Assembly (NCBI GenBank): GCA_905213875.1
Contig: CAJMJN010000001.1
Location: forward strand, 59,940-123,939
Source of the DNA: an uncultured Clostridium sp.
GTDB taxonomy: Bacteria; Bacillota; Clostridia; TANB77; CAG-508
Reading direction: 5' to 3'
Length of the DNA stretch: 64,000 nucleotides
Every line of letters starts with the position of its first letter. Position 1 is the stretch's first letter. A program made the translations under genes and the position numbers. Under the pieces are notes generated by a model. That model had not been told where the DNA came from. It was given only the letters and a program-made list of their open reading frames with translations, and ran no database searches. Below, piece after piece: positions 3,001 through 30,200 of the stretch.

Positions 3001-3726
3001 CAAGTAATAATCGATGGCGACCCAAGAACAGACGATTTACAACATGTAAAAGTATTACCAGATGGAAATATCCATGTAGAGATTGATACTGAATTAATGC
3101 AAGGTGCCACATTAGAAGTAGAATATGAAGTATCTGTAGACAATACAAGAGCTGAAATAGACTATAATGAAAAAGATTATTACATTTATGGAATAATAAC
3201 AAATCCGAATAATTGGAAAATGGCAACAGTAAGTAAACTATATGACTATTTATCAAATGACTTAGACTTTAAAGACAGTAACTTAAAAGAAAATGGAGGT
3301 TCATGGACAGTTGTAAATAGTAGAGACTTAAGCAAAGGTGGTAATTTATCAGAAAAAGCATTTGAAGCTGTACGTAAATACAATAGAATATTCCAAACAG
3401 AAGAATTTGCAAATATGGAACCAGGACAAATAAAAACTGTAAAAATGTCAACATCAAGATTATTATCAAATAACGAAAATGACTATTCATTTGATAATGA
3501 TGTAGAAACAAATGAGCTAAAAGAAAGAAAAATAAAAGACTCAATACCAGGAAATTATGTTCCATCAGAAAGTTCAACACATGAACAAGATGACAGCAAT
3601 AAAAACATTGTAATTACGGTGCCAACTGGTGAAAATAAAGATTACTTGCCATATATAATTCTAACAATAAGTGCATTAATAATAATTAGCTCAGGTGTAG
3701 TGTTAATAAAGAAAAAAGTTCTTTAA
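1..3726 (+). CDS. Cell-wall-anchored surface adhesin/pilin-like protein with Cna B-type repeats; 5' end lies outside the window. Frame 1 is open from nt 1, so the annotated Met at 370 is internal.
   Basis: No stop in frame from nt 1. Repeated G(Y/T)VWED and NYLIRYTYG motifs typical of Cna B/SdrD-B isopeptide domains. C-terminus has TVPTGE followed by a hydrophobic segment and a KKKVL tail, the architecture of a sortase substrate. Confidence 0.7.
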   Translation, partial: RNKYKTLKAEGTAYVNSTTNSNFKDASSPKVQTIIEEGEYVFVGPYKIQNTGAGSISKAVVTKEDGGTCEADGWASSANPNGVNKISSIPNGSTFYLAFKSNKPDSAKEVKIYKKINNILRARMVFFASDGGQNMASYGGRLTGSTEVSINLPRVYFTNIKITKKDQDSGKLLNNVGFKAYCKDRGWVVDGSPATYTSDESKATIYVTKQGVATIRNINKTGDYTIYEVVNPNFGYKEVSVSSPEVMGNINISAVGQAINQTYTNKRLYVKISGYVWEDIISQKASIRNYLWKNDQNDQEDKRVNNITVTLKKSDGTIIDTKTTKKINNTSGQQELGAYLFGDYQRDSSAKKIQIEDLNGAYIEFEYNGMCYKSVPVKATVANGSKATDDNLRNDFNNNYATIVKNESRNGENRKVYNLDYSYSDHVSTLKYGGNYIYGYDGQKYPVTGVSNQYMLIANTKDASPDRLLGQSITLAQLYSNNVEEIPNINLGLYEREMPDLAIIEDIESAKIQLNGYTHTYKYNQRFNNTADDGFNMAVKFGNKWGSASYTREMYSADVSYNQQDGNAGKLQMYITYKIAIRNESTNLYTQANQLVNYFDNRYDIASIITEDGEDIAYQVDESYNNNGYKKVAIGANQKIAPQKQKIVYIQYKLKNDAINAVLNEDITLNSVTEISSYSTYSNEGFSSRYAGIDKDSNPETTEPTNRDSFEDDTDSAPSFIVKVQEGDTRVIKGTVWEDAAIQELLDKEGKDRQRKGDGIYNTQNGSKDGTVEKVKVELLETNENGEIKTSEDGNAVVATLYKREKDEQGKPKTQEASQYTTGEGAYEFSGVIPGNYLIRYTYGNNSVIHKYDGTTENIKIINYKSTIYRGGSKKSANEVVTNKYWYRTETGDATRLSDAKDDLGVNTDGSKFDIVDTRTKEETITYGTSTEQNLQDIEANTQKFEIKLDYDVNLDNISEFGANLKFIFDNIDFGIIQRPIQDVRIGKEISHVKVTLANGQVIIDGDPRTDDLQHVKVLPDGNIHVEIDTELMQGATLEVEYEVSVDNTRAEIDYNEKDYYIYGIITNPNNWKMATVSKLYDYLSNDLDFKDSNLKENGGSWTVVNSRDLSKGGNLSEKAFEAVRKYNRIFQTEEFANMEPGQIKTVKMSTSRLLSNNENDYSFDNDVETNELKERKIKDSIPGNYVPSESSTHEQDDSNKNIVITVPTGENKDYLPYIILTISALIIISSGVVLIKKKVL

Positions 3727-6798: not shown

Positions 6799-8814
6799 TT
6801 GGAAAGGAAGGATTCTAAAATGAAGAGTAATAAAGTAATTTCAAAAATAGTAGCAAGTACATTGTTATGCTCAATGGTAGGTTATACACTTCCTGTATTT
6901 GCATATACAAAAGATGAAACAGTATATTCAAAATTAGATAGTGAAGGGAAAAATTATAAAACAATAGTTAGTACACATATAGAAAATAGTGAATATGCTG
7001 ATACAATAAATGATATGTCAGATTTACTAAATATAAAAAATACAAGTGGTGATGAAACATATACACAAGATGGTAATAAATTTGTATGGAATGCAAATAA
7101 AAATGATATTTATTATCAAGGTGAATCAGAAAAAGAATTACCAATAGAGTGTGAAGTAAAATATGAATTAGATGGAAAAGAAGTTTCTGCAAATGAAATT
7201 GCAGGAAAAAGTGGAAAAGTAAAAATAACTTTACAATATAAAAATAAAGAAGAAAGAACAATTAATATTAATGGTAAAGATGAAAAAATGTATGTGCCAT
7301 TTGTAGTTGTTGCTGGAACTATTATAAAAAATGAAAATGCAAGAAATATAGAAATATCATCTGGTAAAGTAGTAGATGATGGAACAAAAACTGTAATAGT
7401 TGGTATGGCAATGCCAGGTTTACAAGAAAGTTTAGGAATTTCTAGTGATGAAATTGATATTCCAAATAATATAGAAATTACAATGGATGCAACAAATTTT
7501 GAAACAAGTAGTATAATGTCATATGTCACACCTAAAGTTATAGAAGAAGACGATTTAACAATATTTGACGATTTAGACGAAATGTATAATAAAGTAAATA
7601 CTTTACAAAGTTCTATGAATCAAATTCAAGATGGGGCAAACACATTAAAAGATGGAACAACAGAATTAGAAGCAGGTGCAAATACTTTAAAGAATGGTGT
7701 TAATACAGCATATAGTGGAGCTCAAACAATAACATCAGAAGTAGAAAAATCAACACAAAGTTTAAAAAATGATAATTCAGAAGCTTTAGATAATGCAACT
7801 TTAGAATCAATAAAAAAACAAGCTGCTGAAAGCAGTAAATTAACAGATGAACAAAAGGCACAAATAAAAGCTCAAGCTCAATCAGGCGCAACATTAACAC
7901 AAGAACAAAAAAATCAAATTTCTGCACAAGCTAAAGCAAAAGCAGTATTAACAGAAACACAAAAGACACAAATAACAGCAGTAGCAAAACAAGGAGCAGT
8001 ATTAACAGATGCGCAAAAAGCACAAATAAAAACACAAGCTAAAGAAAAAGCAGTATTAACAGATGCACAAAAAACACAAATAATAGCAAATGCACAATCA
8101 GCATATCCAACAACACTAACAGAAACAGAAAAAGCATTAATACTAACAACAGCTCAAAATACAGCAACACAAACAGCAGTGGCAACAGCACTAGAAACAG
8201 CCCAAAGCACAGCAACCAAAACAGCAGTAGCAACAGCATTAAATGTAGCGCAACAAATAGCAACACAGACAGCTGAAACAACAGCATTAGAAACAGCACA
8301 ACAAATAGCAACACAAACAGCAATAACAACAGCATTATCAACAGCTCAAAGTACAGCAACTACAACAGCAATGCAAACATCAACAACAGTTGCAAAACAA
8401 GTTGGAAATCAAGCTAAAAAAACATTTACAAATAAAGTAGTCTCACAAATGAGTACATTAGGAAATGGTTTAAATCAATTAACATCTGGCTTATCAGAAT
8501 TAAATAATGGAGCTACAACATTAGCAAATGGAACAACTCAAATTAATGATGGAGCAACAACTCTAGCAGATGGAATAAAAACATTTAATGAAGAAGGAAT
8601 CGAAAAAATCTGTAATTATATAAATGGAGATGCCAAAGATTTAACTACAAGAGTTGAGAAATTAACAGAATTATCTAAAGAATATAACAATTTTACAATG
8701 CTAGACGGAGAAAATTTAGGAGAAGTTAAATTTATTATGATTATTGATGCAGTAAAACAACAAACAGAAAATGAACAAAATAAAGAAGAAGCAATAGTAG
8801 AAGAAAATAAATAA
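6799..8814 (+). CDS. Secreted YhgE/Pip-like repeat protein with an N-terminal signal peptide and no C-terminal transmembrane domain. Carries Ala/Thr/Gln-rich tandem repeats.
   Basis: Signal peptide KIVASTLLCSMVGYTLPVFAYT. Pip-type TLKDGTTELEAGANTLKNG and LTSGLSELNNGATTLANG heptad segments. Six 18-aa LTDAQKAQIKTQAKEKAV-type repeats and four 15-aa TAVATALETAQSTAT-type repeats. Confidence 0.6.
   Translation: MERKDSKMKSNKVISKIVASTLLCSMVGYTLPVFAYTKDETVYSKLDSEGKNYKTIVSTHIENSEYADTINDMSDLLNIKNTSGDETYTQDGNKFVWNANKNDIYYQGESEKELPIECEVKYELDGKEVSANEIAGKSGKVKITLQYKNKEERTININGKDEKMYVPFVVVAGTIIKNENARNIEISSGKVVDDGTKTVIVGMAMPGLQESLGISSDEIDIPNNIEITMDATNFETSSIMSYVTPKVIEEDDLTIFDDLDEMYNKVNTLQSSMNQIQDGANTLKDGTTELEAGANTLKNGVNTAYSGAQTITSEVEKSTQSLKNDNSEALDNATLESIKKQAAESSKLTDEQKAQIKAQAQSGATLTQEQKNQISAQAKAKAVLTETQKTQITAVAKQGAVLTDAQKAQIKTQAKEKAVLTDAQKTQIIANAQSAYPTTLTETEKALILTTAQNTATQTAVATALETAQSTATKTAVATALNVAQQIATQTAETTALETAQQIATQTAITTALSTAQSTATTTAMQTSTTVAKQVGNQAKKTFTNKVVSQMSTLGNGLNQLTSGLSELNNGATTLANGTTQINDGATTLADGIKTFNEEGIEKICNYINGDAKDLTTRVEKLTELSKEYNNFTMLDGENLGEVKFIMIIDAVKQQTENEQNKEEAIVEENK
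7843..8380 (+). repeat. Intragenic tandem repeats inside the 6799-8814 gene: 54-bp units about six times, then 45-bp units about four times.
   Basis: Periodic LT(D/E)xQKxQI and TAxxTALxxAQ units in the translation. The DNA is visibly periodic. Confidence 0.6.
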
Positions 8815-27061: not shown

Positions 27062-27065
27062 AAAA

Positions 27066-27104
27066 AACGATAAAATGCTAATTTTTAACATTTTATCGTT
27101 TTTT
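27066..27104 (+). terminator. Rho-independent terminator of the tetR gene
   Basis: AAACGATAAAATG-N11-CATTTTATCGTTT followed by TTTTT. Confidence 0.55.
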
Positions 27105-27117
27105 ATTGGAGGCGACA
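27103..27117. repeat. 15-bp direct repeat TTATTGGAGGCGACA, distal copy; candidate attachment-site remnant
   Basis: Identical 15-mer at 30123-30137, where it covers the 3' end (CCA end plus 4 nt) of tRNA-Cys. Confidence 0.5.
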
Positions 27118-27244
27118 GTCAGGTTGAGTGTATCCTGTATTCCTCTTGTATTCTGTACTTTTGTGTTGAAAAAACCTTATTTTAACACATTTTTAACCCA
27201 ATAATTATTTTATATAACATATTGTAACACACTCTAAAAATTCA

Positions 27245-27274
27245 TTGACAAATAATTTAATTAGGGTGTATAAT
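27245..27274 (+). promoter_or_regulatory. Near-consensus sigma-A promoter, TTGACA-18-TATAAT
   Basis: TTGACA at 27245-27250 and TATAAT at 27269-27274. Confidence 0.5.
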
Positions 27275-27281
27275 ATAGATA

Positions 27282-27367
27282 GAAAATGAGAACACAAATA
27301 ATGTGTGTTACCTAAAAAGTTAAGTATACACCGCTAGCTCTGTGAAAGCGTATGTGGTGTATTTTTT
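27282..27367 (+). ncRNA. Candidate small RNA of about 85 nt driven by the consensus promoter. Two hairpins and an intrinsic terminator. Antisense to the 3' end of the convergent small-peptide transcript.
   Basis: AACACA-aataa-TGTGTT hairpin, then GTATACACC...GGTGTAT and a U-run. No open reading frame. Confidence 0.4.
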
Positions 27368-27473
27368 ATTGTTGCTTATTTGATAGTATTATGTATATAA
27401 CACTTAATAAGGCAACGTTTATAGTTATTGAAATCATAAATCCTATTATTAAGAACATTAAAAAATCTAACAT
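27366..27473 (-). CDS. 35-aa hydrophobic peptide MLDFLMFLIIGFMISITINVALLSVIYIILSNKQQ; candidate type I toxin
   Basis: Strong Shine-Dalgarno GGAGGTGGTG 5 nt before the ATG. One transmembrane helix and a polar tail. Convergent and overlapping with the small RNA. Absent from the ORF track because it is shorter than 60 aa. Confidence 0.4.
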   Translation of the reverse strand: MLDFLMFLIIGFMISITINVALLSVIYIILSNKQQ

Positions 27474-27841
27474 ATAAACACCACCTCCAATCTCTCAACT
27501 ATTGTTGAGGAATTAAAGGTAACACCCACATCTGCTTTTATCTCATTTCCTATGTAAATTATATTACAACATTTTTCTATAAAAAACAAGCGAACATTAC
27601 AAACTTTTGCAAATTATTAATGCCTATCATTGTATCATATAAAATGTAATATTCATTAAGTAGTCTTAATATACTTCCCAAAATTCTTAAATATAGTTCC
27701 AAAATCATTTTATTTAGAAATACAACAAATTATACATCTATATACTAAAATTGAAAATAAGTTCTTTAAAAGATTTAATAATAATTATATATATTATAGT
27801 TTTTACTGTATATTCATTAATATATATTTTGAGATTATATT

Positions 27842-29044
27842 TTAAAATGGCAAATCTGCAAAGTCGGTATTATATTTTTCTAATCTTCCTTGTAAATTTT
27901 GTTTTATTATTTCTCGTTGTTTATAGTTACAATTATTTAACCAATCAATACTTTGTAATATTAAAGAAGTTGGAATAGTATAAATGTCATAACATTCGCC
28001 ATCATATTGATTCCATCCAGTTGAGCTTTCGTTTACCTTTACCACTTTCCCAAAAAAGCATTCAGCAAAGTCCTTATTATTTAGTACTTTATCTTCTAGA
28101 CAATATTTTACTGAAATAGCTTCTAATTTTTGAATAATTACATTTATTTCATTGACGTTTGTACCATATTCAACGCTTTCAATTGTTTCATCTAATTTTT
28201 CAACAATTTCTTTATAAATATCCTTTTCATCTTGACTAAAAATAGCCTTATTCCTAAGTTCTTTTTCAGACATTTTGTTTTGTACTTCAGCAAATGAATT
28301 TATTCTATTTGAAACATTATATTCTATCATTTCATTAAGTACGGAGAAATATCTAAAGTTTTTTATATTATTTTCTTCAATTATTTGTTTAATTAATTGA
28401 CCTACAAAATAGATTTCAGTTTTATTATTATAAATTGGTTCATTATCATCTCTAGTATTCATTTCACTTGGTAGATTTGCAATCCAATTATTTTTATATA
28501 AAGTTAATGGGCTTACATTATTATCTGTAGAATATCTTTTTCCAAATCCAAAATCAATTATTTTCACAATACCATTTGAATTAATAAGAATATTATTGCT
28601 TCTTATATCACGATGGCACAGTTTATGTTGTTCCAAATAACAAAATCCACTTATTATTTGTTCAAAAATATTATTAAGTGTTTCCGTATTATTTCCTATA
28701 TATTCATTTAAACTTTTAGCATTTTCAACATATTCCATAATTATATAGCCTACTTGTTCATTTGGATATATATAATTATTATATATTCTTACAATATTCG
28801 GATGAACAATTTTATTTAAAATTTTTACTTCAGAAATAAATTTATCAAAATATCGTTTTTTTTCGTTAGTATCGGTTATAGTTATACTAGGTTCATACTT
28901 CTTACAGGCATATAATTCATCAATAATTTCATCTTTAATTAAAACTGTTCTTGAAAAAGAACCTGCCCCTAGATTTTGAATAAATTTATAGTCTTTAGCT
29001 CTTATAAACGGTATTATATCCCCAGATTTTAATTCTTTTTTCAT
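27842..29044 (-). CDS. Eukaryotic-like Ser/Thr protein kinase with an uncharacterized C-terminal domain of about 190 aa
   Basis: Glycine loop LGAGSFSRT, lysine in YACKKY, catalytic loop HRDIRSNNILI, and DFG. The C-terminal half has no recognisable motifs. Confidence 0.75.
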   Translation of the reverse strand: MKKELKSGDIIPFIRAKDYKFIQNLGAGSFSRTVLIKDEIIDELYACKKYEPSITITDTNEKKRYFDKFISEVKILNKIVHPNIVRIYNNYIYPNEQVGYIIMEYVENAKSLNEYIGNNTETLNNIFEQIISGFCYLEQHKLCHRDIRSNNILINSNGIVKIIDFGFGKRYSTDNNVSPLTLYKNNWIANLPSEMNTRDDNEPIYNNKTEIYFVGQLIKQIIEENNIKNFRYFSVLNEMIEYNVSNRINSFAEVQNKMSEKELRNKAIFSQDEKDIYKEIVEKLDETIESVEYGTNVNEINVIIQKLEAISVKYCLEDKVLNNKDFAECFFGKVVKVNESSTGWNQYDGECYDIYTIPTSLILQSIDWLNNCNYKQREIIKQNLQGRLEKYNTDFADLPF

Positions 29045-29256
29045 ATTTTTCCCCCTATTTTATTTATATATCATAGATATTTCTTTTTTTCAATATACTA
29101 CATATATAAGTCATGTATAATTTATGATATGATCACGGGAGTTTGACAGTTTTAAATTCAAAAAATCATTAAAAGCATTGAAATGTGTTACAAAATATGA
29201 TATATTATTTTGGTAGATAATAAAACTGACAATACGTAAAAAATAGGAGGAAAATT

Positions 29257-29779
29257 ATGGTTAAGTGTAAAACTAAAATTACTCAAAATGAATTAGATGC
29301 TTTAATAGAAATCCAATTATTAAGTAAAAAGAATAAAGAGAAAAGAAAGCTAGGTAGAATTGTATTTGTTGTATCAGCTATTCTGACGTTTTTGCTAGCG
29401 ACCAAAAGTTATTTTCATTATAATTTCGTAAGAGCAGTGATTTTTGGTGTTTTTTGTATATTCTCTGTATTTATGGCGACAGTTGGGGCAACATTAAAAC
29501 AAAAATTTATTTTAAAGAAAATGCAGAATAAAGCAGATGCAAAAATGAAATCGGGAGTAAGAGAATATGAATTCAGCGAAAAACGGAGTTACTATCGATT
29601 CTGAAACTGGACATACTAAAAGCAACTGGAATGCCTTTAAGTTATGGGGAATATATAAAAATTATATTTATGTGAGAAGAATTGATGATGGTATGATTCT
29701 TATAAATAAAAACGATTTATCAAATAGCGCGGCAGATGAATTAGAGGCTTTGCTGAATACAAATGTAAAAGAAGATTAA
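29257..29779 (+). pseudogene. YcxB-like protein (two transmembrane helices + bPH/PH-like domain) interrupted by a -1 frameshift at an A5 run, 29590-29594
   Basis: ORF 29257-29604 and ORF 29567-29779 overlap. Adding one A restores ...EYEFSEKNGVTIDSETGH..., which reads YcxB-like as one protein (KLWGIYKNYIYVRRIDDGMILINKNDL). Confidence 0.55.
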
Positions 29780-29883
29780 AAGAGGCCAATTATTGCTTAA
29801 AAATAAAATTTAATTGTACTAGAAATAGAATATTTATAGAATTAATATGAAGGATATTAAAAAAATAATTTGAATTTATGAGG

Positions 29884-29912
29884 TATTGAAATAATCAATA
29901 CCCCTTTTTTAT
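29884..29912 (+). terminator. Rho-independent terminator
   Basis: GGTATTGA-aataa-TCAATACC followed by CCTTTTTT. Confidence 0.6.
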
Positions 29913-30082
29913 ATTATAGGAAAGTGCTCATTTTGAACAAAAAACATAATAAGAAAAAAGGCATCAATAAAAGAAGCCTTCAAGAAAAAATAGACTCCTT
30001 TAAGGGGTAGTGACTGACAATTGTAAAAGTCAGTCGCAAAGGCCACTTCAGTGGTAGCCAGTAGAGAAGCCTTTTAGGCGTA

Positions 30083-30110
30083 AAGGAAAAACCACCAGCT
30101 AAGCTGGTGG
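30083..30110 (-). terminator. Terminator downstream of tRNA-Cys
   Basis: On the minus strand: CCACCAGC-TTA-GCTGGTGG followed by TTTTTCC. Confidence 0.6.
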
Positions 30111-30122
30111 AAATTTATTACA

Positions 30123-30137
30123 TTATTGGAGGCGACA
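30123..30137. repeat. 15-bp direct repeat TTATTGGAGGCGACA, proximal copy that overlaps the tRNA-Cys 3' end
   Basis: See 27103-27117. Confidence 0.5.
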
Positions 30138-30200
30138 CCCGGATTCGAACCGGGGATCGAGATTTTGCAGACCTGTGCCTTACCACTTGGCTATGTCGCC
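30127..30200 (-). tRNA. tRNA-Cys (anticodon GCA)
   Basis: Manual fold: acceptor stem GGCGACA/TGTCGCC, anticodon loop CUGCAAA, T-arm CCCGG-TTCGAAT-CCGGG, CCA encoded. One C-C mismatch at the base of the anticodon stem. Confidence 0.75.

Follow-up and report, generated by a model that had tools for sequence, protein, structure and literature searches.

Described Systems and a Locus of Similar Design in Uncultured Clostridia

The toxin mRNA of the type I toxin-antitoxin (TA) pair bsrG/SR4 of Bacillus subtilis is closed by a helix, P1, that joins nucleotides (nt) 1-35 to nt 232-262, and its Shine-Dalgarno (SD) sequence lies in a short helix, and the complementarity of the antitoxin RNA SR4 covers the 3′ half of P1 together with the terminator region (PMC3834814). 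Binding of SR4 frees the 5′ end of the bsrG mRNA, extends the SD helix from 4 to 8 base pairs (bp), blocks translation and promotes decay of the message (PMC3834814). Validated clostridial type I systems were restricted to Clostridioides difficile according to a 2019 review (PMC6563280); there, the validated toxins of the CD0956.2/CD0977.1 group begin with a hydrophobic N-terminal part and end in a positively charged C-terminal tail rich in lysine (PMC7699646). Here we analyze a locus of similar design found in a 64,000-nt stretch of DNA from an uncultured Clostridium sp. (contig CAJMJN010000001.1, positions 59,940 to 123,939 of the forward strand; hereafter the window, whose own numbering is used throughout). 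The locus consists of a minus-strand gene for a hydrophobic peptide of 35 amino acids (aa) and of a convergent plus-strand small-RNA gene. As far as the sequence can show, the data support its interpretation as a system of known kind that forms a new family: it is probably a type I TA module, from a family not described before, and its carrier is a small islet without an integrase, located at the 3′ end of a tRNA-Cys gene. That we are dealing with an antisense-controlled small membrane-peptide gene appears highly probable, and it is likely that the two candidate partners form a true toxin-antitoxin pair.

The likeness to bsrG/SR4 extends to several levels. Both loci have a small single-helix peptide (38 aa in bsrG), are carried on an integrated element, and possess a convergent antisense RNA that overlaps the 3′ end of the toxin mRNA, an SD sequence within a double-stranded region, and a long helix between the 5′ and 3′ parts of the mRNA, with an antitoxin whose complementarity takes in the 3′ half of that helix and the terminator region of the toxin. 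A preliminary description of the window had likened the geometry to that of txpA/RatA and bsrG/SR4, and this comparison holds, as the convergent 3′ overlap, the long predicted 5′-3′ helix and the sequestered SD agree with the bsrG/SR4 experiments (PMC3834814); as in the TxpA/BsrG type, overlap at convergent 3′ ends is combined with a predicted 5′-3′ mRNA helix, the 3′ half of which is the target of the antitoxin. There are also differences: the small RNA here is about 90 nt long, compared with 183 nt for SR4, the SD appears fully buried even without the small RNA and has a second anti-SD within the coding sequence (CDS), and the carrier is a tRNA-Cys islet of 0.6-3 kilobases (kb) lacking an integrase, not a large prophage. 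Homology to TxpA/BsrG or to SR4/RatA was not found through Pfam, NCBIfam, PADLOC, Rfam or the Protein Data Bank (PDB), the BsrG sequence itself not having been compared pairwise. Because the same parts occur in the same order, we infer a bsrG/SR4-like regulatory logic.

The Peptide Gene and Its Predicted Antisense RNA

The sense partner comprises the following features:
27366..27473, minus strand: CDS of the toxin candidate, 35 aa, with one transmembrane (TM) helix, an invariant mid-helix Asn19 and the polar tail SNKQQ
27479..27488, minus strand: SD sequence GGAGGTGGTG, immediately 5′ of the peptide ATG

The open reading frame (ORF) translates as MLDFLMFLIIGFMISITINVALLSVIYIILSNKQQ, in which residues 2 to 30 are hydrophobic, and ends with a stop codon at 27366-27368. 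Its frame is open in 101 of 101 distinct CDSs of the family, while stops interrupt four of the five other frames in nearly every one. Of 132 modules, 128 retain the length class, start, SD and stop, and the substitutions are conservative. This conservation, together with a pooled ratio of nonsynonymous to synonymous changes (pN/pS) of 0.38-0.56 in the family CDSs, indicates that the 35-codon ORF is a real, conserved coding gene, whose product, a hydrophobic peptide of fewer than 60 aa with a predicted TM helix, is of the kind expected of a type I toxin. Note also that a 41-codon plus-strand ORF (27352..27477) runs antisense to the toxin gene, in the single alternative frame that is open in 84 of the 101 CDSs. 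As it has no SD and starts within the terminator stem it was judged to be a by-product, its openness arising from the codon composition of the sense strand.

On the plus strand, the candidate antitoxin gene is made up of these elements:
27245..27274, plus strand: antisense RNA promoter TTGACA-18-TATAAT (TTGACA 27245-27250, TATAAT 27269-27274), matching the consensus at 12/12 positions
27281..27371, plus strand: candidate antitoxin small RNA of about 90 nt, with leader AGAAAAUGAGAA, hairpin 1, linker, terminator and U-run
27291-27309, plus strand: hairpin 1 of the small RNA, from the predicted fold
27307-27313, plus strand: linker motif GUUACCU of the small RNA
27326..27362, both strands: shared hairpin, serving as intrinsic terminator of the small RNA and as a structured element of the 3′ untranslated region (UTR) of the toxin mRNA

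No other 12/12 promoter match occurs within the 3 kb scanned, and the form TTGAC[AT]-N17/18-TATAAT is retained in 116 of 119 distinct modules, despite a complete change of spacer sequence in some of them. The terminator hairpin (27326-27362) is followed by the T-run TTTTTTATTG (27362-27371), which spans the stop codon of the peptide, and the fold of the small RNA starting at about 27281 has a z-score of -2.3. When a covariance model was seeded from the 37-aa peptide class alone, it found a single significant match in the 64-kb window, at 27278-27377 on the plus strand (39.4 bits, E = 4e-6), and it matched about 95 cognate RNAs in 95 loci. In the model-fitted alignment of these RNAs, 94.6% of the cells are paired, a share that shuffling lowers to 76.2% and sliding to 52% or less; compensatory changes, on both sides, occur in 20 of the 21 pairs (covariation score 0.403 vs 0.121) and in every one of the 14 pairs of the shared hairpin. 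Two strand tests are independent of that alignment. Firstly, G·U pairs on the small-RNA strand of the shared hairpin number 40, versus 5 A·C pairs (which correspond to G·U on the mRNA strand), and the hairpin of the window itself contains a plus-strand G·U that would read A·C on the minus strand. Secondly, a U-tract follows the hairpin on the small-RNA strand in 94 of 94 sequences, compared with 16 of 94 on the mRNA strand. An alignment of 100 small RNAs made by MAFFT from sequence only and folded with RNAalifold recovered the terminator in part only. These comparisons indicate that the terminator of the shared hairpin is selected on the small-RNA strand, and that the antisense RNA, as a predicted transcript, is a real and selected gene; a gene of this kind, complementary to the toxin mRNA and having its own putative promoter and terminator, corresponds to the antitoxin of a type I system.

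Most of these parts had been anticipated in the preliminary description, which proposed a 35-codon minus-strand ORF encoding a single TM helix with a polar tail, a strong SD in front of it, a near-consensus TTGACA-18-TATAAT promoter, and a small RNA with two hairpins and an intrinsic terminator; each of them is borne out. The overlap that it had drawn between the 3′ part of the small RNA and the toxin message has to be redrawn in part: the stop codon is indeed covered, the T-run extending over 27366-27368, whereas the overlap with the 3′ UTR is probably complete, at about 90 nt, and not confined to its start. Its range for the pair, 27245-27560, was too short, as it leaves out the toxin promoter (27561-27566 and 27584-27589).

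The linker motif GUUACCU/GUUGCCAC may possibly act as an anti-SD in trans, although pairing in cis between the 5′ and 3′ UTRs of the mRNA explains the motif equally well.

Predicted Closure of the Toxin mRNA and Occlusion of Its SD

The toxin mRNA is expected to carry the following elements, listed from its promoter to its 3′ end:
27584..27589, minus strand: -35 box TTGTTT of the toxin promoter, at a position relative to the leader that is fixed family-wide
27561..27566, minus strand: -10 box TAATAT of the toxin promoter, after a 17-nt spacer (TATAGT in most relatives), with a predicted start at about 27553
27540..27553, minus strand: 5′ leader AUAGGAAAUGAGAU, forming the 5′ half of the long-range 5′-3′ helix; its partner in the minimum free energy (MFE) structure is 27279-27291
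27521..27535, minus strand: 5′ UTR element GCAGAUGUGGGUGUU, the complement of the hairpin 5′ arm in the 3′ UTR (27354-27362), paired in the MFE structure
27483..27520, minus strand: SD-sequestering hairpin of the 5′ UTR, with the anti-SD arm at 27504-27520 and the SD arm at 27483-27499
27409..27422, minus strand: CDS-internal anti-SD AUAAACGUUGCCUU, covering the codons I-N-V-A-L, with nearly invariant nucleotides
27279..27313, minus strand: distal toxin 3′ UTR, with the pseudo-SD AGGUAACAC (27305-27313), hairpin 2 (27291-27309) and the U-rich tail UCUCAUUUUCUAU (27279-27291)

With 8 of 12 consensus positions, the toxin promoter is far weaker than the antisense promoter. Since the shared hairpin is no terminator for the mRNA, transcription of the latter should read through the complement of hairpin 1 into the tail, which is U-rich in 81 of 94 sequences, and hairpin 2 together with this tail is the probable mRNA terminator. 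The mRNA is thus predicted to end near 27280, and the small RNA would therefore overlap its entire 3′ UTR.

Closure of the mRNA was analyzed in a sequence-only alignment of 94 distinct modules, for which RNAalifold predicts the helix between leader and tail. Seven of the ten named pairs of this helix show changes on both sides, with 93% of cells paired, and its six core pairs contain G·U 39 times versus A·C twice. The same pairing was examined without any alignment, by comparing the duplex energies of cognate and non-cognate partners in 2000 permutations. Cognate leader and tail form a duplex of -14.6 kcal/mol, compared with -12.3 kcal/mol for non-cognate combinations (0/2000 permutations), and the corresponding values are -14.0 and -11.8 kcal/mol (0/2000 permutations) for the 5′ UTR element GCAGAUGUGGGUGUU with the 5′ arm of the hairpin, and -13.5 and -11.2 kcal/mol for the anti-SD of the 5′ UTR with the pseudo-SD of the 3′ UTR; a control pair showed no difference in this test.

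The full-length mRNA of the window has a predicted MFE of -83.8 kcal/mol, with its ends paired and the SD within a 16-bp hairpin, and an alternative conformer of -80.7 kcal/mol, in which the SD pairs with the CDS-internal AUAAACGUUGCCUU. For the GGAGG of the window, the predicted probability of being unpaired is about 0. Over the 94 mRNAs, this probability is 0.085 for the 5-nt SD core, compared with 0.268 when the flanks are shuffled, and it falls below 0.05 in 69% of the sequences, versus 12.5% of the shuffled ones. The RNAalifold consensus contains 11 pairs, 100% paired, between the SD and the internal anti-SD, the latter being the main SD partner in the 37-aa class. Translation of the toxin mRNA thus appears to be intrinsically repressed by its own predicted structure, as in type I systems.

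Together, these parts suggest the following mechanism. The weak promoter (27561-27589, minus strand) would produce an mRNA of about 270 nt for the 35-aa single-helix membrane peptide, which would be translationally silent, its 5′ leader pairing with its 3′ tail and closing the molecule, while the SD would be buried either by the upstream anti-SD hairpin or by the invariant anti-SD within the CDS. From the consensus promoter (27245-27274, plus strand), an RNA of about 90 nt would be made whose complementarity to the toxin 3′ UTR is complete and whose own terminator lies at the toxin stop codon. By analogy with bsrG/SR4, this RNA would pair with the 3′ UTR, the complementary hairpin loops being the probable starting points, displace the 5′ end of the mRNA from the 3′ UTR and refold the 5′ UTR such that the SD stays locked, and the long duplex of the two RNAs would be cleaved by RNase III. 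Upon loss of the islet or of the antisense promoter, the less stable small RNA would decay first; the stable mRNA would then be processed or opened and translated, and the peptide would damage the membrane.

Two further observations concern the upstream part of the toxin gene. A motif, ATGTTCGCTTG at 27587-27597 on the minus strand, overlaps the -35 box and occurs once in the window; it is found at this position in 77 of 121 distinct related upstream regions. Its conserved form reads (A)TGTTCGCTTG, in many relatives with an A/T palindrome of the type GTAAAATTTTAC standing before it, and it could be an operator for a regulator of toxin transcription. The covariance model of the small RNA also matches the toxin 5′ UTR weakly (27507-27554, minus strand, 14.5 bits, E = 1.1), because the 5′ regions of the two RNAs are alike in the same sense, both having the leader, a GU-rich element and the GUUACC motif.

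Comparison With Other Type I Systems

The pairs txpA/RatA, of the skin element of Bacillus subtilis, and toxin/RCd of C. difficile (CD0977.1-RCd11) resemble the locus in having a convergent antisense RNA that overlaps at the 3′ end and a hydrophobic toxin of 30-60 aa (PMC7699646, PMC6563280). All belong to Firmicutes, occur as several paralogues per genome and are associated with integrated elements. The present module differs from them in that it shares no sequence similarity, its hosts are uncultured gut Clostridia of low GC (guanine plus cytosine) content, and it adjoins genes for tRNA or transfer-messenger RNA (tmRNA), rather than CRISPR arrays or prophages.

The par locus (fst/RNA II) of the Enterococcus faecalis plasmid pAD1 likewise combines a 33-aa hydrophobic toxin with two genes that converge on a common central hairpin. 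Here, however, the two 5′ leaders are same-sense (AUAGGAAAUGAGA vs AUAGAAAAUGAGA) and form an inverted repeat in the DNA, the central hairpin has a U-tract on one strand only, and the direct repeats by which both 5′ ends are made complementary in par are missing. Since the 5′ ends of the toxin mRNA and of the small RNA are same-sense, they cannot pair with each other, and the module is therefore not par-like.

In the proteobacterial systems hok/Sok and aapA1/IsoA1, the full-length toxin mRNA is locked by long-distance pairing between its 5′ and 3′ parts, the SD is hidden by alternative anti-SD sequences, some of them internal to the message, and it is the 5′ region of this mRNA that the antitoxins overlap. 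The predicted message of the present locus shares the 5′-3′ lock and the alternative anti-SD elements, but its overlap with the antisense RNA lies at the 3′ end.

Size and Distribution of the Family

The exact 35-aa peptide occurs in 344 blocks of the assembly collection, largely from human-gut metagenomes, and in ten contigs the DNA from just 5′ of the toxin -35 box to the antisense -35 box is near-identical, while both flanks diverge. With five X residues added to the peptide as padding, a search returned variants at 72-100% identity, and an exhaustive HMMER search added more distant ones. In a set of species-representative genomes, a degenerate DNA pattern, composed of the SD (with GAGGTGGTGTTTAT as anchor) and the N-V-A-L codons, matched the module of about 345 bp in at least 119 genome stretches; the motif GAGGTGGTGTTTAT is also present in peptide homologues found without that pattern. 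A couple of the pattern-matched loci look like chance, such as L122 in a metagenome-assembled genome (MAG) of Opitutaceae; the remainder consists almost entirely of MAGs that carry the label uncultured Clostridia or Clostridium and derive from human, rabbit, mouse and ruminant guts, and one carrier is a complete chromosome of 1.70 megabases. Four length classes of the peptide, 33, 34, 35 and 37 aa, share the core F[IL]LFLI..G/A..S.TINVALL..IYI...NKE. Two module copies lie within 8 kb of each other in 12 of 95 loci, seven MAGs have paralogues on separate contigs, and more divergent paralogues, such as MVESALLLIIQLLFYGLVGVTIINVALVIIILVLLYRQ, are also present. As the block stays conserved in more than 100 genomes although its flanks diverge, this comparison places it beyond chance, and presence/absence data rule out a purely core, vertically inherited gene. 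Its accessory, multi-copy distribution on integrated elements fits a TA module better than a housekeeping small protein.

Against Pfam, NCBIfam and PADLOC, at E values up to 10, the peptide had only one weak and unrelated match, to PF15179 Myc_target_1 (E = 0.66, 10 bits, with a cut-off of 31); no chain was matched in a PDB sequence search, and Rfam, at gathering as well as permissive thresholds (E up to 10), returned tRNAs and chance matches only. Searching 50,697 phage records with the module by blastn gave no match, and the plasmid matches were spurious and AT-rich; a tblastn search of phages and plasmids with the peptide gave none, probably owing to the low-complexity filter. Among 2.9 million viral contigs, two matches were found (L132 and L133, from one sample). 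In these IMG/VR contigs (L132 at about 1950-2300, L133 at about 8160-8500), a complete module of the 33-aa class lies between two Amidase_2/PG_binding_1 endolysin genes and adjoins a siphovirus DUF859 tail gene, which is the sole prophage context found. Another arrangement is that of the metagenome contig L011, where the module stands just 3′ of spo0A and a 96-nt piece of the C-terminal coding part of spo0A is duplicated beyond it at 90.6% identity (2347-2442 and 3381-3476); it appears that an insertion entered the 3′ end of spo0A and brought a replacement gene end with it.

Alternative Explanations

Several observations weigh against the interpretation as a TA module. The peptide tails (SNKQQ, TNKE or NSKIDKE) contain zero to two lysines and often end with an acidic residue, so that the tail here (NKQQ/NKE) is not lysine-rich, unlike those of the validated C. 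difficile toxins (PMC7699646). The pN/pS of the family CDSs, at about 0.5, speaks for moderate constraint only. As to the RNAs, the small-RNA pairs were counted in a model-fitted alignment, a procedure that favors structure. Over all 13 leader:tail pairs of the mRNA, G·U occurs 67 times and A·C 49 times, these counts being inflated by one badly aligned terminal pair and a class with a one-base bulge; the covariation of leader and tail could, in part, also reflect homogenization of the inverted repeat at the DNA level. Pairing of the SD with the internal anti-SD lacks covariation support, because both sides are invariant and partly fixed by the search pattern. Finally, occlusion of the SD differs from shuffled sequences over the 5-nt core only, there being no clear difference over 7 nt (0.22 vs 0.27).

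The peptide might instead be a non-toxic small membrane protein, for instance a membrane-complex or sporulation regulator, that is tuned by a cis-antisense RNA as an accessory gene and is no part of an addiction or toxin module. We regard this as unlikely. The absence of the lysine cluster of the C. difficile toxins would fit it, and so would the conservation of the peptide, unusual for a type I toxin, with the TINVALL core and Asn19 invariant across classes; moreover, some copies adjoin sporulation genes, namely spo0A (L011), spoIIGA/sigE (L012) and M23/M50 peptidase genes (L001-L004). However, part of the nucleotide invariance is accounted for by the RNA role of the internal anti-SD, the module is accessory, multi-copy, islet-borne and missing in a strain of 99.4% identity (see below), and the closed mRNA, its buried SD and two unequal promoters (weak for the sense, consensus for the antisense RNA) amount to a repression scheme typical for toxic products.

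Still less probable, in our estimation, is a lysis or exclusion factor of a phage or island, for example a holin-like or superinfection-exclusion peptide under antisense control that is not a post-segregational killer. The position of the L132 and L133 modules between two Amidase_2 endolysin genes and beside a siphovirus tail gene agrees with such a role, as does a single TM helix with a conserved polar residue, but the two matches in 2.9 million viral contigs and none in 50,697 phage records stand against at least 119 in genomes, and most chromosomal copies, that of the window included, have no lysin or phage genes nearby. To our knowledge, 33-37 aa is also below the size of known holins.

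That there is no functional pair, the ORF being a by-product of a structured intergenic region or the plus-strand RNA an unrelated trans-acting small RNA or insulating terminator, is scarcely credible: neither partner is annotated in the databases searched, and DNA of 26% GC, the content of the window, readily yields hydrophobic ORFs, but the length class, start, SD and stop are maintained in nearly all modules, small RNA and ORF always co-occur with the terminator abutting the stop codon, and the mRNA UTRs covary with the small-RNA gene.

If the reading as a type I TA module is correct, it would add a large, sequence-unrelated type I family from abundant, yet uncultured, gut Clostridia. The more than 90 natural variants of both RNAs represent a ready covariation map of the predicted silencing of a toxin mRNA, by 5′-3′ closure and two alternative anti-SDs, and the compact pair could serve low-GC anaerobes as a device for counter-selection or post-transcriptional control. 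The minimal unit flanked by attachment (att) sites, described in the next section, would offer a tractable case of a TA module that stabilizes, or itself is, a tiny mobile element.

The tRNA-Cys Islet

The preliminary description had also placed the pair inside a tRNA-linked islet, in agreement with the 14-nt direct repeats and the empty site reported here. The islet is delimited as follows:
27104..27117, minus strand: distal, attR-like direct repeat TGTCGCCTCCAATA, closing the islet; exact copy of 30124-30137
30124..30137, minus strand: proximal, attL-like direct repeat, consisting of the last 11 nt of tRNA-Cys (30127-30200) plus 3 nt
27118..30123, both strands: islet of 3,006 bp with a YcxB-like gene, a Ser/Thr kinase-like gene and the TA module at its distal end

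The 14-mer TGTCGCCTCCAATA occurs exactly twice in the window, and no such pair was found in 100 shuffles. In the metagenome contig L158, in which the topoisomerase I (topA) protein is 100% identical and the aligned 2.5 kb (topA and tRNA genes) are 99.4% identical at the nucleotide level, the site is empty: tRNA-Cys is joined directly to 27117 and the sequence continues through the TetR gene. The bounds 27118-30123 are set by the 14-nt repeats and by this junction; a copy of the tRNA 3′ end at the far boundary, together with an empty site in a close relative, is what marks an islet. Its gene content (27118-30123) includes no integrase or recombinase, only the YcxB-like and kinase-like genes and the module. 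Downstream of related topA genes, the module was found in 1 of 80 loci, the downstream DNA examined extending to at most 4 kb and much less in many of them. In about 23 of the 60 loci scanned, a tRNA or tmRNA gene lies near the module, mostly within about 1 kb.

The repeat-flanked unit can be considerably smaller. In L040 it measures about 580 nt and consists of the module and a conserved right arm of about 130 nt, without the kinase and YcxB genes; the repeat-flanked segment around the module of L025 is about 970 nt long, and L006 has two modules in tandem with a repeat between them. Cis-mobilisable elements (CIMEs) of streptococci are att-flanked elements without an integrase that reside at tRNA or gene 3′ ends. 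The islet is similar to them in being a short segment between direct repeats of a tRNA 3′ end that has no recombinase of its own and can accrete in tandem (L006); it differs in that its cargo can be a type I TA module alone, as in the unit of L040. No partner integrase or excised circular form of the element was identified. We advance only tentatively, and with considerable doubt, the idea that the 0.58-kb unit of L040 is a minimal selfish integrative element with a type I TA as its sole cargo. Relying in trans on a borrowed integrase specific for tRNA-Cys, such an element would form tandem arrays, gain passengers such as the kinase and YcxB genes, and owe its retention to the toxin. If this were true, a new class of miniature mobile elements across uncultured gut Clostridia would have the module as its maintenance engine.

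As regards the passengers in the window, the kinase-like gene (27842-29044, minus strand) encodes a 400-aa protein similar to Ser/Thr protein kinases (Pkinase, E = 4e-29), and the YcxB-like gene (29257-29779, plus strand) looks split into two overlapping ORFs of 115 and 70 aa, maybe by a frameshift. Outside the islet, between the end of the TetR gene and the distal repeat, a hairpin with a 20-bp stem is found on both strands (27062-27104), diverged copies of which follow both repeats of L040. As it directly follows tRNA-Cys in the empty-site strain, it is probably the native bidirectional terminator of the tRNA and TetR genes. Lastly, the contig L135 (OCHJ01000491.1, from 6445) is 99.6% identical to the window over the topoisomerase and tRNA genes and then continues after tRNA-Cys with unrelated DNA; the tRNA-Cys attachment site is thus used by at least one other insert.

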